From assembly GCA_035529375.1 (NCBI GenBank), contig DATKWU010000009.1, forward strand, positions 289,111-353,110: a DNA stretch of 64,000 nt, read 5' to 3'. This document shows, in pieces, positions 17,199 to 44,173 of the stretch (positions are counted from its first letter, which is position 1; each line of letters opens with the position of its first letter). Under the pieces are notes generated by a model. It was not told where the DNA came from. It made no database searches and saw only the letters and a program-made list of their open reading frames with translations. Both the position numbers and the translations under genes were made by a program. The stretch comes from Patescibacteria group bacterium (GTDB taxonomy: Bacteria; Patescibacteriota; Microgenomatia; PFEM01; JAHIFH01).

Positions 17199-18326
17199 AT
17201 GAAACTTTCAACTCTTCAAGAAAATCTTGCTAAAGGTTTAACAACAGCCAGTCGTTCGGTTGCTAGCCGGGCGCAGTTACCGGTTCTAAATAATATCCTT
17301 CTAGTAACTGACCGGGGTCGGTTAAAACTTTCGGCTACCAATTTAGAAACAGGTGTTAATTATTGGCTAGGAGCTAAGGTTGAGAAAGAAGGGACTCTCT
17401 CGGTTCCGGCTAAGGTTTTTACTGAATTTATTACTTCTTTACCAGCGGAAAAGGTTGAATTAGAAGCTAAAGAGAATAATTTGTTAGTTAATTGTGGTTC
17501 TTATCAAGCTGAATTTAATGGTTTAGCCGCCACTGAATTTCCCAAAATTCCTTCAATCAAGGGTAAGACTGATTTAAGTTTTGTTTCTACTGAATTAATT
17601 GAATCGATCAATCAGGTTGCTTTTGCGGCTGCCCAGGATGAAGGCCGGCCTGTTTTGACTGGCGTTTTGTTGGCGATTGAGGGTAAAAATTTAAGCTTAG
17701 TGGCTACGGATGGTTATCGTTTAAGTTTGAAAAAGATACCGAGTACTAAAGGAATTGCTCAATCTAAAGAATTGAAGAAAGGTTTGATTATTCCTTCGCG
17801 AACTTTGATTGAGTTAGCCCGAACGATTGGCGATTCTGGTCAAGGAAAAGATATTGGTTTGACCATCACAGAGAAATCAAATCAAGCCATTTTTTCCACA
17901 ACTGATATTGAGATAATCTCTCGTTTAATTGAAGGTAAGTATCCTGATTACAAACGGATTATTCCTGATAAAGGCAAGACAAATATTATTCTTGACACCA
18001 CTGAATTGACCAGAGCCATTCGAGTGGCTGCCATCTTTGCCAGGGAAGCAGCTAATATTATTCGCCTTAACATTGACAAAAAAGGTTTAGAAATTACCGC
18101 CAATACGGCTCAGGTAGGCCGAAACAGAGTTCGTCTTGAAGCTAAAGTCAGTGGTCCTGGTGGTAAGATTGCCTTTAATTCTCGTTATCTTTTGGATTTA
18201 TTAGGAGTGGCTAATAGTGAACAGATAAACTTAGAAATGGCTGGTTCTCTGAATCCAGGTGTTTTCACCCTGGTAGGTGAGAAGTCTTATCTCCACATTA
18301 TTATGCCGGTTAGAGTCCAAGAATAA
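17199..18326 (+). CDS. dnaN: DNA polymerase III beta sliding clamp
   Basis: Three-domain beta-clamp pattern (MKLSTLQENLAKGL..., ...GSLNPGVF). Canonical position after dnaA. Confidence 0.9.
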   Translation: MKLSTLQENLAKGLTTASRSVASRAQLPVLNNILLVTDRGRLKLSATNLETGVNYWLGAKVEKEGTLSVPAKVFTEFITSLPAEKVELEAKENNLLVNCGSYQAEFNGLAATEFPKIPSIKGKTDLSFVSTELIESINQVAFAAAQDEGRPVLTGVLLAIEGKNLSLVATDGYRLSLKKIPSTKGIAQSKELKKGLIIPSRTLIELARTIGDSGQGKDIGLTITEKSNQAIFSTTDIEIISRLIEGKYPDYKRIIPDKGKTNIILDTTELTRAIRVAAIFAREAANIIRLNIDKKGLEITANTAQVGRNRVRLEAKVSGPGGKIAFNSRYLLDLLGVANSEQINLEMAGSLNPGVFTLVGEKSYLHIIMPVRVQE

Positions 18327-18333: not shown

Positions 18334-19413
18334 TTAAAAATGTTCTTGAGTAGGCTTCAAATACTCTGAAGAAATAGCTGGGAGAGTAAGAACAGCTTGA
18401 TAGCGATTACTATCTCTTAGAGTGACGTCACCTTTTAAAAGAAAAACTGGCTGGTGATATTCTTGAACTTCAGTGGTTTCGTAATAGGCAATTGAAACCG
18501 AGGAGATTTTGACTTCTCGGATTTCTTCTGGAAAAGGGATGATTTTATAGTCTCCGCTTTCAGTCATTAATTCAATGATTTGAGCTTGACCCTCTTTAAT
18601 TTCGTTGATAACTTCTTCATAAGATTTAAGAGGATATTGACTGATGACTTCCTGGTCTGTTTGGTGAAGCGAGAAAAAGAGATTAAGGAGATTGCCTTGG
18701 TTATCAACTTTAGCTTCAAGTAAATTTCGAACTTGACCAATGCCAACTAGAGGATAGCCATTAAGACTGGATTTAAAAGTGATATTAAAAATAGTGGCTT
18801 GATCAAGATTGATAACTGGGTTTAATTCCATTCCTACAGGAACAAAGCCGGTCATTACTTCCACCTCTGGCTTACTGGCAGTTAGGCCCCAGGTTTTAAT
18901 TTTTTCGGCTACTAGATCACCAATTTTGGTAGAACTAGTGGTTTGATTTTGGACTAAAGGACTTTTGCCGATAAAAGAAAATTGACCAGAAGAAAGATTG
19001 ACTTTAAGGTAATTTTCTTCCTCTCGCCAGATAAGAAAGTTTCCTTCTTTTCTTTGTTGTTCTTCGGGTGTTCCTAGAAAACCAAGGTCAACAATCATTT
19101 TCGAAAGACGAGAGAGAATTTCTTCCTGGGCGAATTTTTTGATTTGATAAACCGCTAGGGATTTAGGGAAACTGGCAAAATCATTTTCTGAGAGTAAAAC
19201 ATCGTAAATTGGTTCTTTACCCAGTGGTTGACTTAACTCTGATTGGGGTTGAGATAGAGAACCAAATTGAGGTGTTGGTAGGGGCTGAGAAGAAGGAGAG
19301 GTTGGTCGATAGATAAACCGGATGGCCAAAAGGCTGACCACGATAGTGGCTAGTAAAATGAAAAGCCAATAACGTTTAAAAAAATTAAGAATGTTTTCTT
19401 TTTTTATTGACAT
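18334..19413 (-). CDS. Hypothetical N-terminally TM-anchored extracytoplasmic protein (last gene of the T4SS-like operon; possible VirB8/PrgL-position protein)
   Basis: N-terminal TM WLFILLATIVVSLLAIRFIY, then a P/S-rich linker and a ~300-aa domain. The functional guess rests only on synteny with prgI-prgJ-prgK-prgL-type operons. Confidence 0.45.
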   Translation of the reverse strand: MSIKKENILNFFKRYWLFILLATIVVSLLAIRFIYRPTSPSSQPLPTPQFGSLSQPQSELSQPLGKEPIYDVLLSENDFASFPKSLAVYQIKKFAQEEILSRLSKMIVDLGFLGTPEEQQRKEGNFLIWREEENYLKVNLSSGQFSFIGKSPLVQNQTTSSTKIGDLVAEKIKTWGLTASKPEVEVMTGFVPVGMELNPVINLDQATIFNITFKSSLNGYPLVGIGQVRNLLEAKVDNQGNLLNLFFSLHQTDQEVISQYPLKSYEEVINEIKEGQAQIIELMTESGDYKIIPFPEEIREVKISSVSIAYYETTEVQEYHQPVFLLKGDVTLRDSNRYQAVLTLPAISSEYLKPTQEHF

Positions 19414-21932
19414 AGAGGTAAACCTTGACAGGCTTCGTCGACGCTGTGATATTCGCAGCTGTCACTACAAATTAAATAATCACAAGGATCAGGCGTTTTA
19501 CCGCCATCAATAAAGCAGTTTAATTCACCGCAGCTACTAAAGCCAAGGTGGAGGTGACAACCAGTTGATCTGGTGCCCGTAGAGCCAATGTAGCCGATAA
19601 TTTCGTCTCGCTCAATTGTTTGACCAGGACTAACTTCCCAGGACTCTAAGTGGGCGTAAAGACTATAGAGACCGTTGTGTTTAATAACCACATAATTACC
19701 ATAACCATCGGCTCGACCAGCGGCCTGGATAGTGCCTTTGGCGGTCGGATAAACAGCAATTCCACAGGAACTGGTTTTGGGCTGAGGTGTCACAATATCA
19801 ATACCAGTGTGATATTGACAGCAAGGAATGGCGGCAACAGGGTTGCTGCGGTAACCAAAATTTGATGAACAATAAGCAGCATTTCTAATTGGCCACTGAA
19901 AACCTAGACCAGCTGGAGGTTTGATAACCGGTGGTTCTTTTGGTGGTGGATAGGCTTGACTTATTTCTGTTGGGCCGATGGGAAGGATAAAAGCACCGGC
20001 GGTCGTCATAACAATAAAAAAGGTTAAAACCATGGAGGTACCAATTGTGCCCACCACTAGCAAAATAATGGCGCTACTAGAAATGGGGGCAACTGTTAAG
20101 GAGGTGAAGAAAGCAATTACGCCACCACCCAAGCCACCGACAATCGAACCAGCGCTGGCAACTCCCCAACCAATTAAACCAATAATCCCGACCGTAGCTA
20201 CTCCGACGCCAATAGCAACTAAAGGTCCAGAAAAGGAAAAGAGAGCGGCGATGCCGATGCCACCAAAAGCAAGGGCTAAAGATTTTTCTGGATCTCTAAG
20301 GACGGATTTGATTCCATCCCAGATACCTTGAAGACGAGCTTTGATAAAGTCGATGGCTTTACCAACCGCGAGACCAATGACTGTCCCTACTCCAGGCGCT
20401 AAGGCGGTTCCAGCGGCAGCAGCACCAAATTGAACACCTAACTTGGTGGCAATCCAAGTAGCGGCCTTAGTTACTAATTTACTGCTTAAGATTTTTTTGG
20501 CAATCGGGGTGAAAAATCTTCCCAACGACTTTTGGTAAAGAGTGACACCTAATTGTTTAAAGGATTCAAAACGACCAAAAGAAATGAATTTAATAATTCG
20601 GTTCGGTAAAGTGAATCGAATTATGTTTTTACCTGGACCAACGGTTATGGTTTCATAAATTCTGCTCCCTAGACCGATCTTATTTAGAACCTGATGGAGT
20701 CCCCAAGAGTAACCGCTTTTTTCTGACCAATCAGGAGCAGGTGAGGTTTGGTAAAAAATACCTGAGGCTTCATCTTGGGCAAGATGAAAGCCGGTTCGTT
20801 TGGGAAAGCTATACCACTGTTTGAGAATAGAGGCGGCCGGTTTATCTTGATAGTAAAAGGTTCTATCCGGACGAACGATTTTGATTTTTTGTTGGGCGCG
20901 GAATTTAAGGCCTTTATCGTTTAAATATCTGATAATAGGGTCACTGTCTTTTAAACCTAATTCTTTTAGCTTACTAATGGTGGTTTCAATATCTTCAGAA
21001 AAAACTCCTTTTTCAATCATTTCCCGCCATTCGGGGGTCATTTCAGGTGTTCCTGCCGCGATTCTCATTATGCCGACTGGTACGGCATAGGGAATTCTCC
21101 TGACATAAGAAACGCCCGCTTGGGGTTGGAGTAAAGAATAGAGAGTTAAGGAGGCGACACCATCGGTTTCGAGATTTAATTGTCTAATAATATCTTCAGG
21201 TAGTTTCAGATCTTCTGGTTTGATTGTTTTATCAGCAACGGCAGTCGCTTTCGCGATTCTTTCTCGAGGGGTTATAGCAACTTCTCTTGCTTGTTCTAGA
21301 GTATCTTTAGAAGCTTCTTCAACAAAATTTTCGGCAACAACTTTTGGTTCTTTCTCTCCAATCCTTCTTAAATTTTGGCTAATTTCTTTTTTGGTTTGGA
21401 CAAGGATTTGGTGATATTCTTCTTCGGTCAAAGCAACCTTAAGAGCGACAGGTTCGAGTTTGTCAGTAATGTTTTTGGTGATTTCTTCAGTGACTGCCTC
21501 TTGAAGGAGAGGATTATCTCTAAATTTTTCTGTGATTTTTTCAGATTGTTCGCCAATTTCCTGGGCAATTCTCTGCTGAAGAAGTTTAAATCTTTCTCGA
21601 TATTCAGGTGGGGCTTTTTCCGACTCTAGAATTTGACGTTTCTCTAGATATCGCTCGTAATCTTCTCTTAATTCTCGGACTTTAATGGGATCAAGAAGGC
21701 TGGTGTCTAGAACTTTATCACGGTCAGCTAGAAGATCAGCAATTTTATCAATTAGTTTGATAAGGAAGTCTTTGTCTTTGGGGCTAATATCAAGACTTTG
21801 AGCGGCGAAGACAACTTCGTTTTTGGCTTCGCCTTCATCTCCAAGTTCAGCCGGCCAGGTTCCCAATTGAAGAAAAAAAGCCAAACGTTGAATATGTTGG
21901 TAATACTCTTGAAGCTCTTCTTTATTCATCAA
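19404..21932 (-). CDS. Large membrane protein with a C-terminal M23 (LytM-type) peptidase domain; candidate T4SS-associated cell-wall hydrolase
   Basis: N-terminal coiled-coil, then Gly-rich TM helices (GAAAAGTALAPGVGTVIGLAVG..., IGIAALFSFSGPLVAIGVGVATVGIIGLIGWGVASAG). C-terminal M23 motifs YHTGIDIV, GNYVVIKHNGLYSLYAHL and GSTGTRSTGCHLHLG. Confidence 0.7.
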   Translation of the reverse strand: MMNKEELQEYYQHIQRLAFFLQLGTWPAELGDEGEAKNEVVFAAQSLDISPKDKDFLIKLIDKIADLLADRDKVLDTSLLDPIKVRELREDYERYLEKRQILESEKAPPEYRERFKLLQQRIAQEIGEQSEKITEKFRDNPLLQEAVTEEITKNITDKLEPVALKVALTEEEYHQILVQTKKEISQNLRRIGEKEPKVVAENFVEEASKDTLEQAREVAITPRERIAKATAVADKTIKPEDLKLPEDIIRQLNLETDGVASLTLYSLLQPQAGVSYVRRIPYAVPVGIMRIAAGTPEMTPEWREMIEKGVFSEDIETTISKLKELGLKDSDPIIRYLNDKGLKFRAQQKIKIVRPDRTFYYQDKPAASILKQWYSFPKRTGFHLAQDEASGIFYQTSPAPDWSEKSGYSWGLHQVLNKIGLGSRIYETITVGPGKNIIRFTLPNRIIKFISFGRFESFKQLGVTLYQKSLGRFFTPIAKKILSSKLVTKAATWIATKLGVQFGAAAAGTALAPGVGTVIGLAVGKAIDFIKARLQGIWDGIKSVLRDPEKSLALAFGGIGIAALFSFSGPLVAIGVGVATVGIIGLIGWGVASAGSIVGGLGGGVIAFFTSLTVAPISSSAIILLVVGTIGTSMVLTFFIVMTTAGAFILPIGPTEISQAYPPPKEPPVIKPPAGLGFQWPIRNAAYCSSNFGYRSNPVAAIPCCQYHTGIDIVTPQPKTSSCGIAVYPTAKGTIQAAGRADGYGNYVVIKHNGLYSLYAHLESWEVSPGQTIERDEIIGYIGSTGTRSTGCHLHLGFSSCGELNCFIDGGKTPDPCDYLICSDSCEYHSVDEACQGLPLCQ

Positions 21933-21947: not shown

Positions 21948-23885
21948 TTACAACGGCGTTATCTCGGTTTTTTCTTCTCGGTCGGTGGTTTTGCTTTCTT
22001 GACTTTCGGTTTCCTTAGCTTCCTCTATTTTAAGTAGCTCCTCGGGTTTAGAGGTGATTAATTGGTGTTCTTCTTTTGAGGCAACCACTCTGATGGCAAC
22101 ATGATTAGGACCGGCAAAGAAAATACCTTCGCCGACATCAGCGCTTAAGAGAAGGTGTTTTTCACCCTCAGAGAGATAAAAGATTTCAGCAACCTTATCA
22201 ATAGCAGCCGGTGACATTTTCATTAAAGTTTGAATTGAAGAGTTTTGGATAATGGCTTTACCGTGTTCGGAAACCAGGAAATCCTCAACGTCTTGGGTAA
22301 TGGTAGTTAAGCCCAGATAATATTTTCTGGCTCTTTTGGCAATTGAGTAAAGGAAGTTGGCCGAATCTGGATACTGCATTAGATACCAAGCCTCATCAAC
22401 TATCAAAATTCTTTTTTTCATTTCTTTTTTGACCTTGGTCCAAATGTAGTCCAGAATAATAAACATGGCAATTGGTCTTAAAGCGTCTTCTAGATCCCTA
22501 ATCGAAAAAACAGTGAATTTATTTTTAATGTCCACGTTTGAGCGTTGATCAAAGATACCAGAGAAGGACCCTTTGACAAATTTTTCAATCCGGTCGGCCA
22601 AGGAGGAAGCTTCAGGCTCTTCCATACCTCTTAAAGCCTTATATAAATCTTCCATTAAAGGCGGTTCTTTTTTCTGGGTGGCTGGGTCTGGGGTAATCCC
22701 TTTCATTTTGTAAGTTAGGATTAAAGCTCGATCAAGAACCGCTTCTTCAGTGGCTGAAAGGTTGCCCATAATGACTTTAAATAGAGAGTGCAGAGAAAGA
22801 ATTTTTAGGCCTAATTCGTTCTCGCCTTCTTCATAAATCGCTGAGAGATCAAAAGGGTTGATTTTCGAGGGTGAATTAAAACCAAAGGTAATGTATTCAC
22901 CGCCAACTGCTTCGGCTAAAACTTTATATTCAGATTCGGGGTCAATGGCGATAATCTCCGTACCAAACAAAAGAGAACGTAAGGCTTCAAGTTTGACCAT
23001 GTAAGATTTCCCGGCTCCTGACTTGGCAAAGATGACTGAATTGGCGTTTTCCAGTGTAAAGCGGTCGAAAACAACCAAAGAATCATTATGTTCGTTAATT
23101 CCATACATGATCCCTTCATTGGCCGTTAATTCCGAGGAAGTAAAGGGAAAGGTGGTGGCCAAGGAAGTGGTATCCATATTTCGGGTGATCATCAGTCGGT
23201 CGACACAAGTTGGGATGGTAGCTCGAAAACCATCTTCCATTTGAAGAGTGGCGTGTTTAGAAATAATTAATAAAGAACCAAGAGCTGATTCAATTTCTTT
23301 GGAGGCTTGATTTAGTTCTTCGAGTGAATCGGCCGGAATGGTGATGTAAAGACCGAATTGGAAGAAACGTTCGGCACCTTTAACCAGCTGCTCTTGGAGA
23401 GTCCGGGCATCTTCAAGTTTGGCTTGGGTTGCCGGATCAACAATCTTACCACGCTGCATATCGGTTTGAATTTCCGCTTCCATTTCGGCAATCTTACGCC
23501 GCAATTCATCAAGGATTGATTTACCTTCAACCGGATAAACGTACATCGCCACGTCCAGGGAGTGATCAAAATTAATCAAGGGCGCTAGCCAATTAGCGGC
23601 CACAAAACGGGGATAGCCGGCCACAAATAAAGTTCTGAAATATTTATTGCCTATTTTCAAATGATCAAAGTCAACCTCAAGCGCACCAGGAGCAATCACG
23701 TCCTGAACAGAAACCATGCCTTCAGCGAGTTGGGTAATTGGGTCGACGGGTAGTTTGGTCACCACTTGAGGTGATTCAGGCATTTTTCCTTTTTCTTCTG
23801 GTTTACCCTGGGCCAAAGGCAGGCCAATCTTTGAAGACCCCTTTTTACTAATATCGGCGATTTTGTTAAGACCCGGTATTTTCAT
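21948..23885 (-). CDS. virB4: VirB4/TraE/PrgJ-family type IV secretion ATPase
   Basis: Walker A FAKSGAGKSY, Walker B ILIVDEAWYLM. N-terminal region GALEVDFDHLKIGNKYFRTLFVAGYPRFV is typical of Gram-positive VirB4-like ATPases. Size is similar to pIP501 TraE. Confidence 0.8.
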   Translation of the reverse strand: MKIPGLNKIADISKKGSSKIGLPLAQGKPEEKGKMPESPQVVTKLPVDPITQLAEGMVSVQDVIAPGALEVDFDHLKIGNKYFRTLFVAGYPRFVAANWLAPLINFDHSLDVAMYVYPVEGKSILDELRRKIAEMEAEIQTDMQRGKIVDPATQAKLEDARTLQEQLVKGAERFFQFGLYITIPADSLEELNQASKEIESALGSLLIISKHATLQMEDGFRATIPTCVDRLMITRNMDTTSLATTFPFTSSELTANEGIMYGINEHNDSLVVFDRFTLENANSVIFAKSGAGKSYMVKLEALRSLLFGTEIIAIDPESEYKVLAEAVGGEYITFGFNSPSKINPFDLSAIYEEGENELGLKILSLHSLFKVIMGNLSATEEAVLDRALILTYKMKGITPDPATQKKEPPLMEDLYKALRGMEEPEASSLADRIEKFVKGSFSGIFDQRSNVDIKNKFTVFSIRDLEDALRPIAMFIILDYIWTKVKKEMKKRILIVDEAWYLMQYPDSANFLYSIAKRARKYYLGLTTITQDVEDFLVSEHGKAIIQNSSIQTLMKMSPAAIDKVAEIFYLSEGEKHLLLSADVGEGIFFAGPNHVAIRVVASKEEHQLITSKPEELLKIEEAKETESQESKTTDREEKTEITPL

Positions 23886-24798
23886 CTTTATTAACAGCTT
23901 GTTTAACTAAACCATTAATTTGATTTCTAATTGAATCTTGATTTGGGATTATCTCCTCGGTTGTTGATGATTGGGCGGTTGAGTCGATTGGTGTTGTCTC
24001 AATCTTAATTTCTCCTTGAAGTGAGGTTGTTCTTCTAGGTGGTTCGGCTTGGCTTTCTGTTGTTTCCGGCATTGTTTTTGTTATTGAGCTTCTTTCTTGG
24101 GTTGTTTCCATAGCTGCTTCCATGATTGGTGTCTGGTATTGCTTAGAACCAGTCATTTGCTGACCTTTAACTTCAGGATTGTAAATATTGAAGTAGAGCT
24201 GAATAAGTTCCTGAGTGTTAAGCTGTTTGCCTTTGAGACCTAAACGAGCGAGTTGTCTTAAAATATGATCCCTTTTAGGATAGAGGTTGGTCTTGGCTTT
24301 TTGGAGAATGTAGCTCTTATCAAAAGGGAGTTTCTTTCTAGAAAAGGTAGAAGTGAGGATCTGTTTGACGCCTAGTTCTAAGGCACTCATGGGAATGACG
24401 AGATAAAACTTTTTATCAAGAACATTGTTTCTGGCAACCGTTTCTTCGATAAACTGGCGATATTTTTGAATCTGAATTTTAATCTCGTCTTTGGTTTCTT
24501 TTTCTTCGGCTCTTTTGATTAATTTAAGATAGCCGGAAATATCTTTTCTTTGGGAGCAAAGAACGATTTGAATAGAAAAAGTGAGTGAGTTTAGAAGGCC
24601 GGCATAAGCGTAGATGGTGGCTTCCTGTTCTCTTTCTGAAAGGAGACCAAAGTTAATCGCCGTGGTAGCAATCGCCAAACAACAGCTACCGTCTTTGAGA
24701 ATAACAATCCCGTCTTGGATATCCTCAATATCAAGATGTTCTTGAGTTGAAGCTCTAATCGGTATTTTGGTTGGATCAAGTGTTTTGGGCAGGTTCAT
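23866..24798 (-). CDS. Hypothetical protein, translationally coupled upstream of VirB4 (T4SS-associated)
   Basis: 310 aa with no TM helices. Overlaps the virB4 start by 20 nt and the upstream gene by 23 nt, suggesting operon coupling. Confidence 0.5.
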   Translation of the reverse strand: MNLPKTLDPTKIPIRASTQEHLDIEDIQDGIVILKDGSCCLAIATTAINFGLLSEREQEATIYAYAGLLNSLTFSIQIVLCSQRKDISGYLKLIKRAEEKETKDEIKIQIQKYRQFIEETVARNNVLDKKFYLVIPMSALELGVKQILTSTFSRKKLPFDKSYILQKAKTNLYPKRDHILRQLARLGLKGKQLNTQELIQLYFNIYNPEVKGQQMTGSKQYQTPIMEAAMETTQERSSITKTMPETTESQAEPPRRTTSLQGEIKIETTPIDSTAQSSTTEEIIPNQDSIRNQINGLVKQAVNKDENTGS

Positions 24799-25765
24799 GG
24801 ATTTTTCCTTTGGTGCGAATCTCTAAGGGTTCGACGATCGCGCCAGTAAGATTGGTTTTAATAATATCAAATTGATAACCTTCTTTTTCAGCTTCAATTT
24901 CGTATTGACCGTTATCTAGGGGAGTGACGCTTCGAAATTGGCCTAATTTATTAGTTTTCAGAGCCCTGACTGGAATTCCCTGAGTATTTCTGATTTCTAT
25001 AATCGCATTTTCAATAATTTTGCCCTCAAGGTCAAGAACCATTCCCACAAGAGTATTAGGTTGAGTAGGAGCTTGAGGAAAAGGTAGTTCAGGACTGAAT
25101 TTAGCTTCCACCGTGGGTTTTCTAGGTTGAGCTGGTTGTTTGGGTAAGACAAAAGGTTTTCTTTTGGGAGTACTTGTTTTTTGAGGATAGCTAATTTTTG
25201 GTTTAAAAGTTGTTTCAGGCTTGGTTATTGGTTGGAAAGGTTGCCGAATGGGCGGAATCTTTTCTGTTGGTTGAGCCATATTCGCCGGCATTTTGGTTAA
25301 TTGGAACATATTAAGAGATTTTTTAATAAAGTTTTCTTCTTGTTGGTCAAGTTGACTTTGAGATTCGGTTGGGAGAGTTGAGAGGTATTCTCTTAATTGT
25401 TTTTTATTTGGTGGTGGGGCGGCCTTTTTTTGAAAAACAACCTTTTTGTAACCAGTTTTGAAGATATCAGGCTCCTTAGCTTGTCTTTCCCAGACGAATT
25501 GAGTTGGTGAGAAAATAGCTTTGATAAAGGCAACAATCCACTTATCAAGCGGCCTTTCCTGAATCGGCATAAAAGCCATGGCAAAACCAAGAAAAACAGC
25601 CAGAGCCACCAAAGGCCATTTAATGATTGGCACGAGGGGAGTGGCATAGAGAATCAAGCCAATAATACAACCACCAGCCAAAAAGCCAAATTGTCGAACG
25701 GTCATATCACCAACCAGACGGAATTGGTAAGAAGAAATGTGTTGTGGTACTGGATGTTGTTCCAT
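24776..25765 (-). CDS. PrgI/VirB3-like small-TM-domain protein with a Pro-rich linker and a C-terminal extracellular domain
   Basis: N-terminal YQFRLVGDMTVRQFGFLAGGCIIGLILY plus a second TM (WPLVALAVFLGFAMAF), resembling PrgI-family (VirB3 analogue) topology. It is the first gene of the minus-strand operon. Confidence 0.4.
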   Translation of the reverse strand: MEQHPVPQHISSYQFRLVGDMTVRQFGFLAGGCIIGLILYATPLVPIIKWPLVALAVFLGFAMAFMPIQERPLDKWIVAFIKAIFSPTQFVWERQAKEPDIFKTGYKKVVFQKKAAPPPNKKQLREYLSTLPTESQSQLDQQEENFIKKSLNMFQLTKMPANMAQPTEKIPPIRQPFQPITKPETTFKPKISYPQKTSTPKRKPFVLPKQPAQPRKPTVEAKFSPELPFPQAPTQPNTLVGMVLDLEGKIIENAIIEIRNTQGIPVRALKTNKLGQFRSVTPLDNGQYEIEAEKEGYQFDIIKTNLTGAIVEPLEIRTKGKIHEPAQNT

Positions 25766-28370: not shown

Positions 28371-29909
28371 TTAACCTGAGACTTTTTTACTAAGTACTTC
28401 AATAACGCTCGAAATGCCCGTTTCTAAGCTTTTTGGTTTCTCGCCGCTTCCCCTTCCCTCCTTTCCCCATGTGATTCTTTCTGCTATTTTTGGACCAGCA
28501 CCCATCATCGCCATACCTGCTACTCCCCTTATTGGACCAACTGCTTCGCCAATAGCTGCTCCATATTCAAACGGCTTACCGGCAAGAAAAGCTTTAATTA
28601 TATCTGTGACTTTTGGGGTGAGGGCAAGAATGCCAATACTAATAAAGAGCATAATGATGGTCGATATAACATTAGCTGAACCCAAATTCCGAAATGCTGC
28701 AACAAGATCCTCTAAAAAAGTAGAACTGGTATTACCTTCGATACTGCTTACAACTAAGCTTCCTAAATTAGATTTTCTAAAAAGCGGAGCAATAGCCAAA
28801 TAACCAGAGAGAAAAATCATTGCTATCGTGGCTGGCAGAACAACTAAGTTGGCAATGAGATTTCTAAACCAGCTGGAAATAGCGTTACTTCCTGGCAGAA
28901 TACCAACTAATATTTCGAAGGGAGCAAAAATTAAATGAAGGACAACCATAACATAGGCCTTTAAGAGTGCCCATAAGATACGGATGTAGATAATAAGAAA
29001 AATGATAGCCAAAAGAAAAAGAATTGTTACGTTTAAGCCTATTATCATAGGAGATATAGGCCATAAGATAATGCTAGTAATTATGGTAGGGGTAGAAGTG
29101 ATAATGGTAAAGGTTAGAAAAGTAGCAAAGGCAGGCCCGAGTAAGATTATGAAGATACCAGCAGCCAAATGACTAGCATCAGTAACAGCTTGAGCAGTAA
29201 TTAGTCGAGAGAGCCATTGAGGAAAATTCGGGTCTGTATCAGGGATGTGTTTGAAAGTAAAAATAATCAGATTTGTAAAGACCCACATAAAATCAATCAT
29301 GAGGCCAACGATTGCGTAAGAGAAGGTTATTAAAATAAGGCCAATGACTACTTTTGGAAGAGCTGATTGAATGGTGATTACAGTTTGAGGATTGATTTTA
29401 ACCCGGAACATAATAGCAAACCCCATAAAGACAAGGATGAGAACAAAGAAAACATAGGTAATATTTCGAAAGGTTTTCCAGAGAGGGAGATAGTCAGCCA
29501 TTCGTTCGAATCCAGTATCTTCTTGGGCGTAGGTTGGTTTGACAACTCTCAGTTTTTCACCGATGCTTGCTAAATATTGAATCCCAGAAGCAGGCGGGGT
29601 AGCGTAAATATAGGCGATAAAACTGCCGATAGTTCTAATCATTCCTGTTTGGTTTTGGTTTTGTTCTCCCTGGTTCAAGACAACACCGAAAATAAAATGA
29701 ACGATCGAGCCAAAGATTGCTTTGATTGTTTCGTAAACAAAACTTTGGAGGTTCATTTCTTCTGAATTGATAGCGCTTTCAAATTGAAATTGGTAAGTAC
29801 TTTCAGGTGTGGAAAATGCTTGAATCGGGCCAGATAAGATAAAGGAGAATAGAAAGAAGAAAAGGAGAGTTAGAGTAATTTTTTTCTTGGTAAATAATTT
29901 GGTTAACAT
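28371..29909 (-). CDS. VirB6/TrbL-like polytopic membrane protein (candidate T4SS channel subunit)
   Basis: Signal/TM N-terminus, then at least 8 TM helices with large loops and a hydrophilic C-terminal tail. This architecture resembles VirB6/PrgH-like proteins. Confidence 0.4.
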   Translation of the reverse strand: MLTKLFTKKKITLTLLFFFLFSFILSGPIQAFSTPESTYQFQFESAINSEEMNLQSFVYETIKAIFGSIVHFIFGVVLNQGEQNQNQTGMIRTIGSFIAYIYATPPASGIQYLASIGEKLRVVKPTYAQEDTGFERMADYLPLWKTFRNITYVFFVLILVFMGFAIMFRVKINPQTVITIQSALPKVVIGLILITFSYAIVGLMIDFMWVFTNLIIFTFKHIPDTDPNFPQWLSRLITAQAVTDASHLAAGIFIILLGPAFATFLTFTIITSTPTIITSIILWPISPMIIGLNVTILFLLAIIFLIIYIRILWALLKAYVMVVLHLIFAPFEILVGILPGSNAISSWFRNLIANLVVLPATIAMIFLSGYLAIAPLFRKSNLGSLVVSSIEGNTSSTFLEDLVAAFRNLGSANVISTIIMLFISIGILALTPKVTDIIKAFLAGKPFEYGAAIGEAVGPIRGVAGMAMMGAGPKIAERITWGKEGRGSGEKPKSLETGISSVIEVLSKKVSG

Positions 29910-29956: not shown

Positions 29957-32941
29957 TTATTGAACAATTGTTCCCCATAGCCATTGCAAAAGGTTTTTAC
30001 CTTCGTCTTTGGGTACAAGTGATTTAGTTACCCATTCTTTGGCTAATTGAACACCACCAAGGTAGTTGTAATAGAATCTGCCTTCTGAGGGAGTAATATC
30101 TTCTGGGCTTTGGCTGTCTTTGTAATAGAACTGAATTTCACTGGCCGCATCCATTTCTCGGAATTCCGGCCAGGTGGCTGGGCGGAAAATATTAAAGAGA
30201 CCATTGGTGTCTAATTTACCGGTTTGTTCCCAGATCTGGGTTAGGTAAGGATGAAGGAGACGGGTGCCAAAATCCCTTTTAACCGATCTCTCAATAATCT
30301 CCTTGCAGGGATCTTTACATTTCTCGCACTCGTTAGGATCTTTTGATTTAGGGTCGAGTACGCAACCAGGAATTGGTTTACAATCGAGACCTTCTTGACG
30401 GCACTTTTCGTATTCAGGATTTTCCCAAGCATCAACAGCTACCAGAGGAATATTGATTTTGCATTCTTCATCACAACAAAGCTTGTCATTATCATTAGGG
30501 TCTGTAATCGCTGGCAATTCACAGTTAGATACTTGAACAAGAGGACCAGAAACACCACAAGTTGCTGGCGGTTCATAAGGTTCGCCTTTGCAAGAACCTG
30601 TTCCGTTCTCATCAAGAGTCATACAACAACCTTCACTAACTCCAACGTGTCCAGTGGAAGTTCCAATATTATAGTTGATGGCACTGACATTAATGCAAGC
30701 TGTTCCGCCAGGTCCAGGAGAACCTATGTGGTATTCTAGACCCGGACCGAGATTGTTTATTCCCATGAATTGGCCGTTGATTTCCACCCAGACATGACCA
30801 TCACCAGAGGCATCAATAATGATTGTACAGCCTCCTCCTGAACAAGTGATAGACCTAATATTAATACTTGAACATTGGTCGCCGTCAGGATCACAGCCAC
30901 TAGCTTGAGCTAGAAGTTTTTTCTCTCCTGGTGAAGCGATAATAAGGCTTGTTTGATTTTGGGCATACATTAAACTGCTATCCCATTGCGTTAAAAGCAT
31001 GTTATTTAGTTCCTGAGTGGCTTCATTCAGGCGAGCAACATGAGGAACATCTTCTACCTGCGGTTCAATATTTTTGGGAATATCATCAGATTTATAGCCG
31101 TAATAGGGCATAATCCAGCCAATGGTATCATCACGACTGATCAAGGGAGCGACCACCCAGAGATTGGACCATTTACCGTTTTCTGCTTCTTTCCATTCTT
31201 GATATTTTATTTCGTAATTTTCCTCTTCAGGGTCTGGAGGAAGATGATCAGCCAGACTCGTTAAAGTGCTGGTAGCTCCAGTTTCGTCCCAATGAGAAAT
31301 TTTAATAGGGGAACTATCAAGAATAGTCTTAACTCCAGCAATCAAAGCATCATCCAAGGGATTTAAAGTTTTATCACTAAAGAGACAGTAGTTAGAAAAT
31401 TCTTCAGCCTTTTTAACGACAATATTACTACCTGTTAGTTTTCCTGCTATTGTGATAAGGGCTTCCGCCCAAAAAGGCGCGTCCCAACAAAGGCGGCCAA
31501 TATAATTAAGGTTGTAATCGTGAACGCCACCTTCGTGGATATTTTTTTCTATAGTTTCTTTTGCTCTCTTGACCATGTTTTTCTTCAGCTCGTCTTGGTA
31601 GGCCATAGGGGTTAATTTGCGAAGAACACCAGCGTGGTTAACCCAATCTAGCCAGTATTGCCCATAGTTCTGGTAGTATTCATTGGTTCCTTCGAAGTAG
31701 TCAGCCAAATATTTTTGTTCGTAATCGGATTTATCATCAACGCCCTCGCCTTTATAACCAACAAAAGGGATAGTGGTATCTGAAGGATCGATAGTGACGA
31801 TTCCCCCCCATTTTCTACTGACACAATGAGGCGGTTCTTCAGTGCCGTCACCCCGTTCATAAGTAACGGTATCGTGAACTGTAAAACTCGTGGCGCATGA
31901 AGGACAGTAATTGTGGGTATCGTCACAAGAATCGCAAGGAACCGGTCGGGAATCATAATCGCCGCCGTCGGAGGGGTTACAGGTGGGTGGCGGGGCGACA
32001 ACGACATAAGGTGATGGGGTAGGGATGGGAAAGGGAATAAATTCAAAATCAGGAATAATTCCTTCAAGCAAGGCCGCATAAAGTTGAAAATAGAAAAATG
32101 CCAATTTGGGATTACCAAAAATATCTACTAAGCCAAAACCCGGTCCGCCGAAGTCCGAAAAGGTATACCAAAGAACGGTCGCCACCTCATTACCGAATTC
32201 TCGGGCAACTAATTCATAAACGGCTTTAAGATAATCAGCCTGGAGTTGTTGATCAGCTACTTCCCAGCCAAATTCAGTTATCCAGAGAGGTTTACCCTCT
32301 GAGACCGCTAAAAAATTTAAAAGAGTTTGTCTAACTAGATTGATGTCAAGAGTGTAGGGGTGAACCCCAACCCCATCAGCCGGCAAGCCACCAGCAATTT
32401 CAATTACTTTTATTAGATAATTTGGGTCGCCAGCCACCATTCCTCCGGTGACAACAAAACTATTTGAATTTTCATTTATAGCGTTATAGGCAGCTGCCAA
32501 AAGGGCGGCATAATTTCCAGGGGGAATATAAATTGAGGCAACATTATTTTGAGCGTCTTGCTCATTCCAGATTTCATAAGCGGCTACCCTATCCCCGAAG
32601 CGAGCTGCGGTCTCAGCTGCCATGTTGGCAAAATTATTTACATAATTAGAATTAATTTCTAAGTTTGGCGGCCAAAGTGTTTGCTGGTTTAGAACCATAA
32701 CAACATCGATTCCCGCCTGATTAAGTTCATTTATATAGGAATCGTAGTTGAAACCAGAATCGGGCACATAAACAAATCTTACCCAACTAGCCCCCAGAGC
32801 TTGAAGGTCGCTGGCACTTGGTCTTGATTGGGGATTAATAGGACCAATATTAATCCCCGCGCCCCCTGCTTGAGCAGAAACTTTTTGGGGAGAAACAAGG
32901 AAAAAGAAAAGTAGTAATATTCCTAGGCAGATTTTTTTCAT
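29957..32941 (-). CDS. Secreted 994-aa protein: N-terminal clan GH-A (GH5-like TIM-barrel) glycoside hydrolase domain plus Cys-rich C-terminal modules
   Basis: Signal peptide MKKICLGILLLFFFLVSPQKVSAQA. Catalytic-acid-like motif YEIWNEQD and nucleophile-like LWITEFGWE. Downstream clusters of paired Cys (CDSCDDTHNYCPSC, CCDEECK, CEKCKDPCK). Confidence 0.6.
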   Translation of the reverse strand: MKKICLGILLLFFFLVSPQKVSAQAGGAGINIGPINPQSRPSASDLQALGASWVRFVYVPDSGFNYDSYINELNQAGIDVVMVLNQQTLWPPNLEINSNYVNNFANMAAETAARFGDRVAAYEIWNEQDAQNNVASIYIPPGNYAALLAAAYNAINENSNSFVVTGGMVAGDPNYLIKVIEIAGGLPADGVGVHPYTLDINLVRQTLLNFLAVSEGKPLWITEFGWEVADQQLQADYLKAVYELVAREFGNEVATVLWYTFSDFGGPGFGLVDIFGNPKLAFFYFQLYAALLEGIIPDFEFIPFPIPTPSPYVVVAPPPTCNPSDGGDYDSRPVPCDSCDDTHNYCPSCATSFTVHDTVTYERGDGTEEPPHCVSRKWGGIVTIDPSDTTIPFVGYKGEGVDDKSDYEQKYLADYFEGTNEYYQNYGQYWLDWVNHAGVLRKLTPMAYQDELKKNMVKRAKETIEKNIHEGGVHDYNLNYIGRLCWDAPFWAEALITIAGKLTGSNIVVKKAEEFSNYCLFSDKTLNPLDDALIAGVKTILDSSPIKISHWDETGATSTLTSLADHLPPDPEEENYEIKYQEWKEAENGKWSNLWVVAPLISRDDTIGWIMPYYGYKSDDIPKNIEPQVEDVPHVARLNEATQELNNMLLTQWDSSLMYAQNQTSLIIASPGEKKLLAQASGCDPDGDQCSSINIRSITCSGGGCTIIIDASGDGHVWVEINGQFMGINNLGPGLEYHIGSPGPGGTACINVSAINYNIGTSTGHVGVSEGCCMTLDENGTGSCKGEPYEPPATCGVSGPLVQVSNCELPAITDPNDNDKLCCDEECKINIPLVAVDAWENPEYEKCRQEGLDCKPIPGCVLDPKSKDPNECEKCKDPCKEIIERSVKRDFGTRLLHPYLTQIWEQTGKLDTNGLFNIFRPATWPEFREMDAASEIQFYYKDSQSPEDITPSEGRFYYNYLGGVQLAKEWVTKSLVPKDEGKNLLQWLWGTIVQ

Positions 32942-33246
32942 TATTCAAACTTAAACTCAAGCAATCCTTCGATGCCAGTAAAGTCAGCAATGAATTTAAG
33001 AATGAACCAAGCAATGATAATCAAGACTAGACCAAGAATGGCATAGGTAATTGTGTTCCTTGCTGATTCAACTGCCTTAGGATCACCACCAGAAGTCAAC
33101 CATTTGAAGCCACCAAGAATAATCATGATGAAAGTAGCAATTCCGGCTAAACGAATAGCCAAATTTAGAAGATTCCACATGATTTGAATTAGGTCTGAAA
33201 TTCGAGCTGGATCTTCCATTAAACTAACTTTACAACACCAAAACAC
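32941..33246 (-). CDS. VirB2/TrbC-like pilin-type small membrane protein (paralog 1 of 8)
   Basis: TM1 (GIATFIMIILGGFKWL), loop TSGGDPKAVESARN, TM2 (ILGLVLIIIAWFILKFI). Shares a family motif with the other seven paralogs. Confidence 0.5.
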   Translation of the reverse strand: MFWCCKVSLMEDPARISDLIQIMWNLLNLAIRLAGIATFIMIILGGFKWLTSGGDPKAVESARNTITYAILGLVLIIIAWFILKFIADFTGIEGLLEFKFE

Positions 33247-33319
33247 CTACCGTCAAGGGTAGGTGTCGGTACGCACTTTAATTATTTAAACCGCTTCTAT
33301 ATAAGGATTAGATTCTTTA

Positions 33320-33697
33320 TTATTTAATCGTTGGAATTGCTAGTCCGGTGAGAATATGAATTCCAAAGAATGTCTCCAATAATCTAATGATGGCCCAGGA
33401 GGCAAAAACAATTGCTAGACCAATTAGAGCGGCCGTGAGCGTGCTTTGAGCATTGGCCGTTCCTTCTTTGTCACCACCAGAGGTAATCCATTTAATCCCA
33501 CCAATGATGAGAAAGAAAAAGGAAATCAGAGCTGCCACTACCAAGAGCAATTTAATAGCAGCAGAAATTATACCCGGAATAGTAATAGTGCCTAAAGCCC
33601 CAAAGTCTTCACCTGTAGGTAAGATGCTAATGGTATCACTAGCCGCCAAAGCAGGAGCAATCATTAAGTAATTTGTCAATTCTTTAATTTTCTTCAT
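33320..33697 (-). CDS. VirB2/TrbC-like pilin-type small membrane protein (paralog 2)
   Basis: Signal peptide MKKIKELTNYLMIAPALAAS, then TM1 and the loop WITSGGDKEGTANAQSTLTAALIGLA, then TM2. Confidence 0.5.
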   Translation of the reverse strand: MKKIKELTNYLMIAPALAASDTISILPTGEDFGALGTITIPGIISAAIKLLLVVAALISFFFLIIGGIKWITSGGDKEGTANAQSTLTAALIGLAIVFASWAIIRLLETFFGIHILTGLAIPTIK

Positions 33698-33716
33698 TTT
33701 TTCACCCCCTTTCCTT

Positions 33717-34115
33717 TTATTTGATTAGATAAGGCGAAATATCAAAAAAGAGATTCTCGAGCGCCTCAATCCCAAAGAAACTCCCAATTAATTTGATTAT
33801 AGCAAAGACAGCAAAAAGAGCAATTAGACCAACAATCGCACTGACGACTTTACCTCGGGCTGACTCTAGAGCCGCCTTGTCGCCGCCAGCGGTCATCCAT
33901 TGAATCGCCCCAACCACCAGAAAAATGAAAGCAACGATAACCCCGACGATAAGAAGAATGGCGATAATATTACCCAGGAAAAGGTTAATAATATCAAGGC
34001 CTTCACCAGTACCAACCAGAGGATTAAGAGCAGGATTGTAAATACCTTCTTGGTATTCGCCTGCGCCTCCTCCTTCACCTGGTGTCGCAGCAGCTAAATA
34101 GATTTTTTCTATCAT
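33717..34115 (-). CDS. VirB2/TrbC-like pilin-type small membrane protein (paralog 3)
   Basis: WMTAGGDKAALESARGKVVSAIVGLI between two TM helices. N-terminus MIEKIYLAA is shared with paralog 4. Confidence 0.5.
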   Translation of the reverse strand: MIEKIYLAAATPGEGGGAGEYQEGIYNPALNPLVGTGEGLDIINLFLGNIIAILLIVGVIVAFIFLVVGAIQWMTAGGDKAALESARGKVVSAIVGLIALFAVFAIIKLIGSFFGIEALENLFFDISPYLIK

Positions 34116-34117
34116 TT

Positions 34118-34507
34118 TTAGGGCCCTAGTTGTTCAATAATTTCTTGAGGATTAAGAATGTCAAATCCTAAAAAATTGCCGATAAGAGAAATAAGAGCAT
34201 AGGCGAGAACAATAACAATCAGGCCAGTCAAGCCATTACTGATTCTTTTAGTAGCCCCTTCAACTGCTTTAGAATCACCACCAGCCGTTAAATAGCCAAA
34301 AGCGCCGATAACAAGAATGAAGAAGAACCAAATACCGGCAATAACGGTCATAATGCCGATGATTTTTGAAAGGATTGAAGTGAAGTGTCTGGCGGCAACA
34401 CCAACATTACTGAATCGGTAGAGAGCTCCCCAGGGACCGAAACCTTCACTGGGGTCTCCGCCAATGGGACCAAGATCAACTTCAGCGGCAAAGATTTTTT
34501 CTATCAT
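34118..34507 (-). CDS. VirB2/TrbC-like pilin-type small membrane protein (paralog 4)
   Basis: YLTAGGDSKAVEGATKRISNGLTGLI between two TM helices. N-terminus MIEKIFAA. Confidence 0.5.
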   Translation of the reverse strand: MIEKIFAAEVDLGPIGGDPSEGFGPWGALYRFSNVGVAARHFTSILSKIIGIMTVIAGIWFFFILVIGAFGYLTAGGDSKAVEGATKRISNGLTGLIVIVLAYALISLIGNFLGFDILNPQEIIEQLGP

Positions 34508-34510
34508 TTT

Positions 34511-34864
34511 TTAAGGCCCGTAAATTTTCGGATTAAGAATGGCGCTGGCATTGCCAAATAACAAATAACCAAAAATGGCAGCTAGAACAAAAGAGCCCAG
34601 AATAAACAAAAGCCCCATCAGTGATTGCCAGATTCTCGCCCAAGCTGCCCCCATTTTTTTAGGATCATCACCCGCACTTAAAAAACCATAGCCGGCAATG
34701 ATTAAGTTAAAAAAAGCAAAAAGACCGCCGACAACAATTAAAAGACGGATAATATTATTCAAAAACTTGATCATCCCAAAATTTGGCCCAGGCTCGCCAG
34801 CATAGCCAGTAATCCCCATTTTGGTAAAAGGATTTTCAATGGCTCCAAAAATTTCGAAAATCAT
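34511..34864 (-). CDS. VirB2/TrbC-like pilin-type small membrane protein (paralog 5)
   Basis: FLSAGDDPKKMGAAWARIWQSLMGLL between two TM helices. Confidence 0.5.
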   Translation of the reverse strand: MIFEIFGAIENPFTKMGITGYAGEPGPNFGMIKFLNNIIRLLIVVGGLFAFFNLIIAGYGFLSAGDDPKKMGAAWARIWQSLMGLLFILGSFVLAAIFGYLLFGNASAILNPKIYGP

Positions 34865-35229
34865 ATGCCTAAACCCCCACTAAGAAAATCAATACCGGTA
34901 ATAACTTTAATAATTTGTATTATCCAATAACTGGCAAAAATAATCAAGAAACCAATTAGAGCGGCGGTCACCGCCTGGGTTCCTTTAGCCGCTCCCTCAG
35001 GATTTTCCTGGCCAGCGCTGATAAGGAACATCAACCCACCACCAATCAGAAGAAAGAAGAGAATAATACCAGCTAAAACATAGATGTTGGGTAGAAGATT
35101 GGAGATAATGCCCCCCAAAGTCATACTCGTACTCAAACCTGAGTGTTCGCCAAAAAGGGCTTTGCCAATTTCGAAATTCTGCATCACATTTAGTCTATCA
35201 ATATCAAATTTAAGTGTCAACTTTTGCAA
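34861..35229 (-). CDS. VirB2/TrbC-like pilin-type small membrane protein (paralog 6, divergent loop)
   Basis: FLISAGQENPEGAAKGTQAVTAALIGFL between two TM helices. 4-nt overlap with paralog 5. Confidence 0.45.
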   Translation of the reverse strand: MQKLTLKFDIDRLNVMQNFEIGKALFGEHSGLSTSMTLGGIISNLLPNIYVLAGIILFFLLIGGGLMFLISAGQENPEGAAKGTQAVTAALIGFLIIFASYWIIQIIKVITGIDFLSGGLGI

Positions 35230-37120: not shown

Positions 37121-37415
37121 CTTCCAAAATTTGAATCAGCCAATAGGCAACAAAAATAATAACAAAGCCGATGACAGCGCCCGTGAGTCTTCCTTTAGCT
37201 GACTCCATTTTCTTTGGGTCACCAGCCGAAGTCATCATTTCAAAGCCAGCCCAAATCAGGATTAAAAGCAAAGCCAAACCAGCCAAAGCAAAAATATAGG
37301 GGATCAGGTCATTGATAATATTGCTAATATTCCCACTGGCAAATGCAAAGCTAGGTGGATCATTAATTGATTCGCCGCCAGGAAAAGTTAAAGCTAATTT
37401 TTTCATTTTATTCAA
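37095..37415 (-). CDS. VirB2/TrbC-like pilin-type small membrane protein (paralog 7)
   Basis: MMTSAGDPKKMESAKGRLTGAVIGFV between two TM helices. Confidence 0.5.
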   Translation of the reverse strand: MNKMKKLALTFPGGESINDPPSFAFASGNISNIINDLIPYIFALAGLALLLILIWAGFEMMTSAGDPKKMESAKGRLTGAVIGFVIIFVAYWLIQILEVIFGLKIF

Positions 37416-37761
37416 ATCCTGGGATAGCTAATATTTCCACTCCAATAATTCTTAAAATAAAAACAGCAAAAACAATTAGTAAGAGACCAGAGATCGCCGA
37501 AGTGATGAGCTCTTTACCTGATTGGACTTTTTCCGGATTACCTCCAGAAGTTAAGACCTGAAGCCCTCCAAAGATAATTAAGAGAGTAGCAATCCCACCG
37601 CCAATACCAATGGCGAAAGCTAGAATTCTACTAACGAAAGCTTGGGGACTTTCAACATTAATTGGCCCAATGGCGGTATTAATAATTGCTTCAGCTAGGG
37701 TTGGACTGGCGAGAATAAAAATTAAAGCAAACAATAAGACGGTCACAGCTAGTTTTTTCAT
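37408..37761 (-). CDS. VirB2/TrbC-like pilin-type small membrane protein (paralog 8)
   Basis: Clear signal peptide MKKLAVTVLLFALIFILASPTLAEA. The mature part is TM1 - VLTSGGNPEKVQSGKELITSAISGLL - TM2, a two-TM pilin-like topology. Confidence 0.5.
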   Translation of the reverse strand: MKKLAVTVLLFALIFILASPTLAEAIINTAIGPINVESPQAFVSRILAFAIGIGGGIATLLIIFGGLQVLTSGGNPEKVQSGKELITSAISGLLLIVFAVFILRIIGVEILAIPGFE

Positions 37762-43236: not shown

Positions 43237-43277
43237 GATCATCTTTAATTCTTAATAGACTTAAGAAATAGAAACTA

Positions 43278-43447
43278 ATGAAAGAGGGGGGTCCCACCGC
43301 TGCCGAAATCATCGCAATTTATGACGAAGTCCGTGGTTACTTCCGGACTCCTCAGGCAATTAAAGGTATCTCTCCTGAGAAAGAAGAAAAACTTCCTACT
43401 AAACAAACTCCTGAACAAGTCCAAGATAAAACTTCTCCTAAGAAATA
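43278..43447 (+). CDS. Possible small ORF (56 aa) between tmRNA and comF
   Basis: My translation gives MKEGGPTAAEIIAIYDEVRGYFRTPQAIKGISPEKEEKLPTKQTPEQVQDKTSPKK. No homology evidence. It is below the ORF-track length cutoff. Confidence 0.2.
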
Positions 43448-43468
43448 AACCCTGTTAAAATTAGTTTA

Positions 43469-44137: not shown

Positions 44138-44173
44138 AAAAAGGCTAGTTTTTTGCTAAAATAGGAACCATTA

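Follow-up and report, generated by a model that had tools for sequence, protein, structure and literature searches.

We analysed a 64-kb window (64,000 nucleotides of contig DATKWU010000009.1 from a Patescibacteria group bacterium) that carries a type IV secretion system (T4SS) close to dnaA and dnaN. Within this system lies a gene for a large membrane M23 peptidase, which we regard as its probable wall-opening subunit. The peptidase gene occupies the fourth place in a compact run of five genes on the minus strand (prgI, trsD-like, virB4, peptidase and g359). The run stops 7 nt from the convergent dnaN, and dnaA, jag/khpB, yidC and rnpA lie just past it. An ATG is found one codon past the TTG start of the peptidase open reading frame (ORF), and the NCBI protein that is 100% identical, from a Patescibacteria-group metagenome-assembled genome (MAG), is 841 aa long and named 'peptidoglycan DD-metalloendopeptidase family protein'. 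The original prediction, made from the letters of the sequence, had described an 842-aa ORF directly downstream of VirB4; the coordinates proved exact, on the minus strand, and the upstream gene encodes a VirB4-like ATPase of the CD1110 family. The overlap of 15 nt with the virB4 stop that was also described is in fact a 15-nt spacer between the virB4 TAA stop codon and the TTG start, and it is the next gene, g359, that the peptidase gene overlaps, by 10 nt. Promoter and terminator scans over 18.0-26.2 kb found none above shuffled expectation.

The Pfam search proposed at the outset identified Peptidase_M23 (PF01551) as the sole Pfam domain of the protein, located at aa 707-799 with a score of 72.4 bits (cut-off 28.7) and E 3.6e-20. 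In Pfam, NCBIfam and PHROGs the peptidase matched M23 only, with no lytic transglycosylase, muramidase, CHAP or NlpC-P60 domain, and the NCBIfam matches were partial, sub-threshold ones to M23 enzymes (MepM, ShyA/C, Pgp3 and DipM). When the C-terminal 179 aa were compared with PDB sequences using phmmer, the best match was NMB0315 (3slu/6muk, E 1e-17). The M23 motifs first noticed by eye (YHTGIDIV, YAHL and CHLHLG) are real, as HTGID, YAHL and HLH aligned residue for residue with the active M23 peptidase NMB0315 (3slu), and all five zinc-binding/catalytic residues are present (H708, D712, H761, H793 and H795). Since the zinc ligands are retained, the domain stands apart from the degenerate LytM regulators (EnvC, NlpD, DipM, PrgK-LytM and SpoIIQ). 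In the AlphaFold2 (AF2) model, the M23 domain and the Cys-rich tail reached predicted local distance difference test (pLDDT) values above 90. Foldseek aligned the domain to 6jmx, 6muk, 3slu, LytM and lysostaphin with E ~4e-8 and target TM-scores up to 0.8, and it was the only part with matches when the whole model was searched against PDB and BFVD. All 12 Cys of the protein fall within aa 688-841 and none earlier, which agrees with the Cys noted beforehand in the C-terminal part, and the Cys-rich C-terminal extension is kept in the closest homologues. Judged from these residues, the M23 head is apparently an active endopeptidase.

P0004 (43% identity) was the only divergent relative of full length to emerge from a word-index search; its 6.6-kb metagenome contig (L001) carries prgI, trsD-like, virB4, the peptidase homologue and g359 in the same order as the window. 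A profile of aa 1-660 (4 sequences, M23 left out) was used in an exhaustive HMMER search against 1.84 billion cluster representatives. This search retrieved 85 proteins at E<=1e-3 (37 of them at E<=1e-30), most of them 750-1150 aa long, and those with source names came from Shapirobacteria or the 'Microgenomates group'. The peptidase of the window shows the features that define the family, namely a Lys-rich helix, a Gly-rich polytopic module ending in (S/T)GAFI(L)P and a Cys-rich hydrolase head. The heads themselves vary: a Pfam scan of the 85 members found M23 in 39, CHAP in 15 and Peptidase_C39-like in 4, and the remaining heads are Cys-rich domains with no Pfam match, some of these being two-domain heads. 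A shared scaffold with swapped heads is what would be expected if the job of the scaffold were to hold a T4SS wall hydrolase in place. The N-domain is variable too and altogether absent from several members, which then consist of ~40 aa, the membrane module and the head. Many M23-headed members (P0008, P0029, L004 11988-14645 and others) carry a ~100-aa beta-sandwich insert (DUF7507-like) before M23, and these insert-bearing heads lack the canonical HxxxD, with 'AIDI' aligned to 'GIDI' and the His displaced. The 'MAISQMEASG' heads (P0012 type, also L010) looked SLT-like by eye, an impression that was abandoned as Pfam found nothing in them. A word-index search with an alignment of the membrane module (14 sequences) for a link to Saccharibacteria gave one trivial match, the candidates having probably been saturated by low-complexity words.

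The genomic context of the family was then determined by scanning GTDB genomes with VirB4, which yielded 35 loci from Shapirobacteria, Beckwithbacteria, Woesebacteria and unclassified Patescibacteria whose ORFs were searched with hmmsearch and phmmer. A family gene lies directly after virB4 and on the same strand in 16 of these 35 loci, in addition to L001 and the window; in most cases a g359 homologue comes next, ahead of the convergent dnaN. In a second arrangement virB4 abuts dnaN, and three such loci (L015, L021 and L033) have a distant member of the family just upstream of prgI, its head being either CHAP or one that Pfam does not recognise. None of the loci examined has division genes next to the family gene, nor is there any linkage to ftsEX. 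The synteny check set out with the original prediction therefore came out in its favour, with orthologs located in T4SS operons and never beside division genes. An apparently 'split' orthologue in the closest relative, L002, turned out to be an artefact of a masked N run. Many of the GTDB species-representative MAGs with a prgI-trsD-virB4-dnaN locus are titled 'uncultured Gammaproteobacteria', 'Pseudomonadales' or 'Bathyarchaeia', labels that are probably wrong.

Outside the catalytic head, neither the N-domain nor the membrane module had any Pfam, PHROG or PDB-profile match. AF2, run on the 85-sequence alignment, gave a mean pLDDT of 79, with most of the N-domain at 85-97. The long N-terminal coiled coil initially suspected was not borne out: many short helices are predicted within a confident domain (pLDDT ~85-97), with a small alpha/beta part at aa 349-440. 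The Gly-rich transmembrane region expected before M23 was found, as aa 551-650 are Gly-rich and contain zero charged residues, preceded by a weaker hydrophobic segment at aa ~502-530. A scan with the Hessa scale proposed five candidate spans (~505-523, 551-569, 571-589, 597-615 and 622-650). According to column statistics, this module is the best-conserved part of the family, with its (S/T)GAFI(L)P ending and G499, G575 and G582 conserved.

The N-domain is presumed cytoplasmic, and with five spans and a cytoplasmic N-terminus the M23 domain would lie outside. The composition of the family is strongly asymmetric around the membrane module: N-domains contain 18 Cys in 35,328 residues (0.05%) versus 614 in 20,566 (2.99%) for the heads, and the pre-membrane segment averages 8.6 K+R versus 0.7 D+E, followed on the other side by a net acidic, Pro-rich linker. 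We consider it very likely that the M23 domain is external, because of the Cys asymmetry, the charge asymmetry and the head types (M23, CHAP and C39-like), which are usually extracytoplasmic. On this indirect evidence, the topology check named with the original prediction also leans in its favour. The positions of these parts are listed in Table 1.

Table 1. Location of the peptidase gene, its domains and motifs, and the associated T4SS genes in the 64-kb window
Feature	Coordinates	Strand	Basis or remark
Whole ORF, T4SS-linked membrane M23 peptidase	19404..21932	minus	842 aa from TTG at 21932; 841 aa from ATG at 21929
N-domain, aa 1-470	20523..21932	minus	no signal peptide, no Cys, mostly helical
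Lys-rich amphipathic pre-membrane helix, aa 458-501	20430..20561	minus	conserved K468, K479, K488/489, K497, G499
Polytopic Gly-rich membrane module, aa 502-650	19983..20429	minus	hydrophobic segments; AF2 pLDDT 30-60
Pro-rich linker, aa 651-679 (PIGPTEISQAYPPPKEPPVIKPPAGLGFQ)	19896..19982	minus	net acidic post-membrane region across the family
Peptidase_M23 (LytM-type) catalytic domain, aa 680-800	19533..19895	minus	Pfam, PDB phmmer, AF2, Foldseek
HxxxD zinc-ligand motif, H708-T-G-I-D712	19797..19811	minus	alignment to NMB0315
Catalytic His761 (within YAHL)	19650..19652	minus	alignment to NMB0315
HxH motif, H793-L-H795	19548..19556	minus	alignment to NMB0315
Cys-rich C-terminal extension, aa 801-842, 7 Cys	19404..19532	minus	stop codon included; AF2 pLDDT ~90
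PrgI (VirB3-like, PF12666) with CarboxypepD_reg-like domain	24776..25765	minus	first operon gene; Pfam
TrsD-like protein, equivalent to the N-terminal part of VirB4	23866..24798	minus	NCBIfam; PMC12102498
VirB4-like ATPase (CD1110 family)	21948..23885	minus	upstream neighbour; E 1.4e-119
g359, bitopic membrane protein with YycI-like ectodomain	18334..19413	minus	10-nt overlap with peptidase stop; co-occurs with hydrolase gene
g512, 512-aa polytopic membrane protein, signal-like N-terminus	28371..29909	minus	conserved in related T4SS clusters
Six tandem VirB2-like T4SS pilin genes (PF18895)	32941..35229	minus	domain scan

The remainder of the T4SS cluster extends upstream of prgI. The 512-aa protein g512 had no Pfam match and no match to TrbL/VirB6 profiles; it is the likelier VirB6 equivalent, and as such a candidate for the 'missing' VirB6 of Microgenomatia. 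Beyond it, g994 (29957-32941, minus strand) encodes a 994-aa secreted and very Cys-rich protein with a weak N-terminal Glyco_hydro_cc match, which is kept in related T4SS clusters (L003, L004, L008 and L030); it could supply the glycan cleavage that is missing from the M23 protein. A seventh VirB2-like pilin gene (37408-37761, minus strand) lies 2 kb off the six-gene array and adjoins a plus-strand gene (37838-39541) for a 567-aa protein with a SpoIID (lytic transglycosylase-type) domain. Between prgI and g512, a 768-aa ORF occupies the opposite strand (25886-28192, plus); it had no Pfam, NCBIfam or PHROG match and no homologue in 36 related loci, and looks like a lineage-specific insertion in the T4SS cluster. 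Domain searches of the large ORFs of the window revealed neither a coupling protein nor a relaxase. This layout matches the one published for the candidate phyla radiation (CPR) (PMC12102498): Patescibacteria T4SSs are monoderm, MPF_FATA-related systems located near dnaA/dnaN that contain arrays of pilin genes and as a rule lack a relaxase (PMC12102498; PMC12857230).

The last gene of the run, g359, was considered as a PrgL/VirB8-like partner, an idea taken from the prgI-J-K-L order. Its AF2 model (pLDDT 86.5) had EUBREC_2869 (5coz) and the WalK regulator YycI (2o3o) as best PDB matches, with no VirB8, TraM, PrgL or TcpC among the structural matches, and the idea was dropped. The presence of a YycI-like ectodomain beside a wall hydrolase may be a sign that the hydrolase is under regulation.

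Conservation analyses of the window against related loci showed that VirB4 is 81-92% identical and DnaN 55-79%, and that the peptidase is only 25-43% identical. The identities of g359, g512 and g994 are similarly low, the envelope-exposed T4SS proteins as a whole reaching only 25-52% (loci L001-L008). The type of head also shifts between close relatives: L004, with 87% VirB4 identity, carries a different M23 subtype with the beta-sandwich insert, and L010, with 83% VirB4 identity, lacks the N-domain and has a Cys-rich head that is not M23. Between the window genome and its relatives, VirB4 is better conserved than DnaN (17199-18326), which could reflect an unusually strong constraint on VirB4 or lateral exchange among Microgenomates.

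Two other regions of the window are of note. A large serine recombinase gene (49739-51298, minus strand; Resolvase, Recombinase and Zn ribbon) is located at the edge of a low-GC stretch (0.35-0.37, 50-55 kb), downstream of a gene for tmRNA and six clustered tRNA genes (Ser x4 and Arg x2; 42867-45748), and this region may be an integrated element. At 7522-10437 (minus strand), a 971-aa fusion of an NAD-dependent epimerase/dehydratase with DUF4012 adjoins Wzy_C (O-antigen ligase-like), polysaccharide-flippase and RNase H/RVT_3 genes.

Altogether, these results make it probable that the peptidase is the wall-opening subunit, and thus a functional VirB1/PrgK equivalent, of a chromosomal T4SS of the monoderm conjugation type near the replication origin of a Microgenomates bacterium. 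We read it in this way because the family gene is kept in T4SS loci and is never found beside division genes. The idea of a channel-associated peptidoglycan hydrolase, already put forward in the original prediction, is thus supported by the T4SS synteny and by the interchangeable wall-hydrolase heads. According to this proposal, the peptidase would be co-transcribed with prgI, trsD-like, virB4 and g359, as suggested by their overlaps or 15-nt gaps and their shared strand. The Cys-free N-domain of ~470 aa would remain in the cytoplasm, and the Lys-rich amphipathic helix and the five Gly-rich segments found after it would be embedded in the membrane, probably next to the VirB3/VirB4/VirB6 translocon. 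The Pro-rich linker would hold the Cys-rich M23 zinc endopeptidase, in which the catalytic residues are present, at the outer face. There, the M23 head would locally cut the peptide cross-links of the peptidoglycan, rather than its glycan strands, and let the channel and the VirB2-like pilus cross the wall.

Several observations weigh against this proposal. It is gene order that ties the peptidase to the channel, and both the catalysis and the T4SS role of the family are predictions. A glycosidase domain, which every characterised T4SS wall hydrolase has, is absent from the protein. As for topology, the first hydrophobic segment (~505-523) is marginal, with a summed apparent insertion free energy of about +4 kcal/mol on the Hessa scale, and the loop that follows it is basic (K+R 4.5); with four spans instead of five, the M23 domain would be cytoplasmic. 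AF2 was unconfident in the membrane region (pLDDT 30-60), so that the topology is not settled by direct prediction. Finally, the large and well-folded N-domain has a role that the proposal leaves unexplained.

Among the alternatives, one that is compatible with the wall-opening role is that the hydrolase head acts mainly on the wall of the host, at the contact between epibiont and host, where it would serve penetration, feeding or attachment and determine host range. The peptidase evolves far faster than the motor (25-43% identity versus 81-92% for VirB4), heads are swapped between close relatives, as L004 and L010 illustrate, and Southlakia epibionticum requires its CPR T4SS to grow epibiotically (PMC10633639), all of which would fit an enzyme facing the host. 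However, the reach of the head would be limited, because a polytopic anchor and a short linker (~30 residues) keep it on the membrane of its own cell. Moreover, g359, g512 and g994 diverge equally fast, so that fast evolution is not specific to the peptidase gene. We therefore regard a primary action on the host wall as unlikely, albeit the best placed of the alternatives. A more elaborate version, to which we give the same low credence, is a cassette system, in which heads on a T4SS-docked scaffold would be swapped between close epibionts and tuned to host peptidoglycan, with the N-domain coupling the scaffold to the VirB4/TrsD motor in a system without VirD4. If true, this would make the peptidase family a host-range determinant of CPR epibiosis.

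The membrane module could instead be the missing VirB6-like channel subunit, fused to a hydrolase, in which case the protein would mainly be a component of the translocon. Within the family, conservation is indeed highest in the polytopic Gly-rich module, which persists in members that have lost the N-domain, and VirB6 homologues are reported to be scarce or undetected in Microgenomatia (PMC12102498). In contrast, aa 441-680 gave no TrbL/VirB6 or PrgH match in Pfam, even at E<=10, and none in NCBIfam. Five short Gly-rich segments would form a small platform for a channel, and g512, with more membrane segments and found in the same clusters, is a more conventional candidate; we find this role for the module quite improbable. 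Less plausible still is a non-catalytic M23 domain, with a regulatory, structural or peptidoglycan-binding role comparable to that of LytM in PrgK, EnvC, NlpD, DipM and SpoIIQ. The sole characterised T4SS LytM domain, that of PrgK, is degenerate and regulatory (PMC11323569), DipM, EnvC and SpoIIQ were among the structural matches, and many M23-headed members of the family depart from the canonical HxxxD. The protein of the window, however, has all five zinc/catalytic residues, aligned to those of active enzymes, and the prgI-to-g359 operon holds no other recognised wall hydrolase, which makes a purely non-catalytic role very unlikely here. Lastly, the closest sequence matches of the domain are housekeeping DD-endopeptidases such as MepM, ShyA/ShyC and NMB0315, but a MepM/ShyA-like housekeeping enzyme of elongation or division that sits beside the T4SS near the origin by chance can hardly be reconciled with a T4SS linkage conserved in ~20 loci (and none to ftsEX or other division genes), a family-specific scaffold whose head is exchangeable for CHAP or C39-like domains, and a gene that overlaps or nearly abuts its T4SS neighbours.

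These findings would assign the wall-opening role in Microgenomates T4SSs to a small, defined family with an exchangeable catalytic head, which should help to annotate and dissect CPR T4SSs. They reveal no new kind of system, and earlier papers have already described a peptidase after virB4 in CPR (PMC12102498; PMC10633639). What appears to be new is the delineation of the Microgenomates scaffold family, the polytopic Gly-rich anchor with its previously undescribed N-domain, and the cassette-like exchange of heads, among which apparently intact M23 is the commonest. The five catalytic residues, a soluble domain that could be expressed and the partner gene g359 offer concrete targets, and the question is raised of whether the M23 head cuts the wall of its own cell or that of the host.

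We finally compared the peptidase with known systems. As regards the catalytic domain, the best matches of aa 680-800 are NMB0315 (3slu/6muk), ShyA, MepM and Campylobacter Pgp3 (6jmx), whose metal-binding and catalytic residues are identical. These enzymes differ from the peptidase in being periplasmic, with housekeeping or cell-shape functions and with LysM or other domains at the N-terminus; they are neither polytopic nor linked to T4SSs, and the Cys-rich extension is missing from them. Phage ejection and tape-measure proteins (the cyanophage A4 pre-ejectosome, 9k2v, and PHROG tape-measure families) resemble it as long helical or membrane-active conduit proteins with an M23 head. M23 is the only part that matches, with whole-chain TM-scores of ~0.13-0.16 and an rmsd (root-mean-square deviation) of ~30 A, and this likeness is best taken as an analogy rather than demonstrated homology. 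A phage origin of the whole protein was discarded, as the phage families match the M23 domain only.

Among the wall hydrolases of monoderm T4SSs, TraG (pIP501), CwlT (ICEBs1), TcpG (pCW3) and Orf14 (Tn916) combine a glycosidase (SLT, muramidase or glucosaminidase) with CHAP or NlpC/P60 (PMC12857230). The peptidase shares their presumed role and operon location, but none of them has an active M23 domain or a polytopic anchor (PMC12857230). PrgK of pCF10 from Enterococcus faecalis is a VirB1-like, 'DELTA class' T4SS hydrolase (PMC11323569, PMC12857230). It is encoded after prgI and prgJ and has a cytoplasmic N-domain, one transmembrane helix and LytM, MUR and CHAP domains; its LytM domain is degenerate (no HxxxD, HxH or metal) and regulatory, the muramidase being the active enzyme (PMC11323569). 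PrgK and the peptidase are both large proteins encoded right after VirB3-like and VirB4 genes, with an N-terminal domain (presumed cytoplasmic in the peptidase), a membrane anchor and a wall-hydrolase part, probably extracellular in the peptidase, that includes a LytM/M23 fold. In contrast to PrgK, the peptidase has a polytopic anchor of ~5 segments and M23 as its sole recognisable enzyme domain, with an intact active site, and no sequence similarity between the two was detected outside M23.

Within CPR, the single species examined so far depends on its T4SS for epibiotic life (PMC10633639), and the components of these systems are poorly assigned. According to hidden Markov model (HMM) surveys, VirB1-type hydrolases seldom occur close to virB4 except in Paceibacteria, and VirB6 is nearly absent from the matches in Microgenomatia (PMC12102498). 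The same survey of CPR T4SSs notes the SEML1_0007 peptidase, as well as some VirB1 homologues with an extra M23 domain (PMC12102498). SEML1_0007 of Southlakia epibionticum ML1 (Saccharibacteria), a 1113-aa protein encoded right after virB4, was essential in transposon sequencing (Tn-seq) (PMC10633639 Table S2; PMC12102498). Its C-terminus has a Hedgehog/DD-peptidase (M15-type) fold, and its structural neighbours include a CPR 'Peptidase M23 domain-containing protein' (PMC10633639). It occupies the same slot as the peptidase, after prgI, trsD-like and virB4, and is likewise large with a C-terminal peptidoglycan peptidase, the match being one of position and published Foldseek neighbours only. 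The two differ in the head, which is M23 and not M15-type in the window, and in the next gene, g359 in one case and the lysozyme and cysteine-protease SEML1_0006 in the other. The suggestion that an M23 endopeptidase would be a different solution to wall opening thus holds with respect to the classical SLT, lysozyme and CHAP hydrolases, but less so given the degenerate LytM domain of PrgK (PMC11323569) and the SEML1_0007 peptidase after virB4. Strict membership of the VirB1/TrsG/CD419 type failed because the peptidase has no glycosidase or CHAP domain; nevertheless, it is VirB1-like by every contextual criterion.

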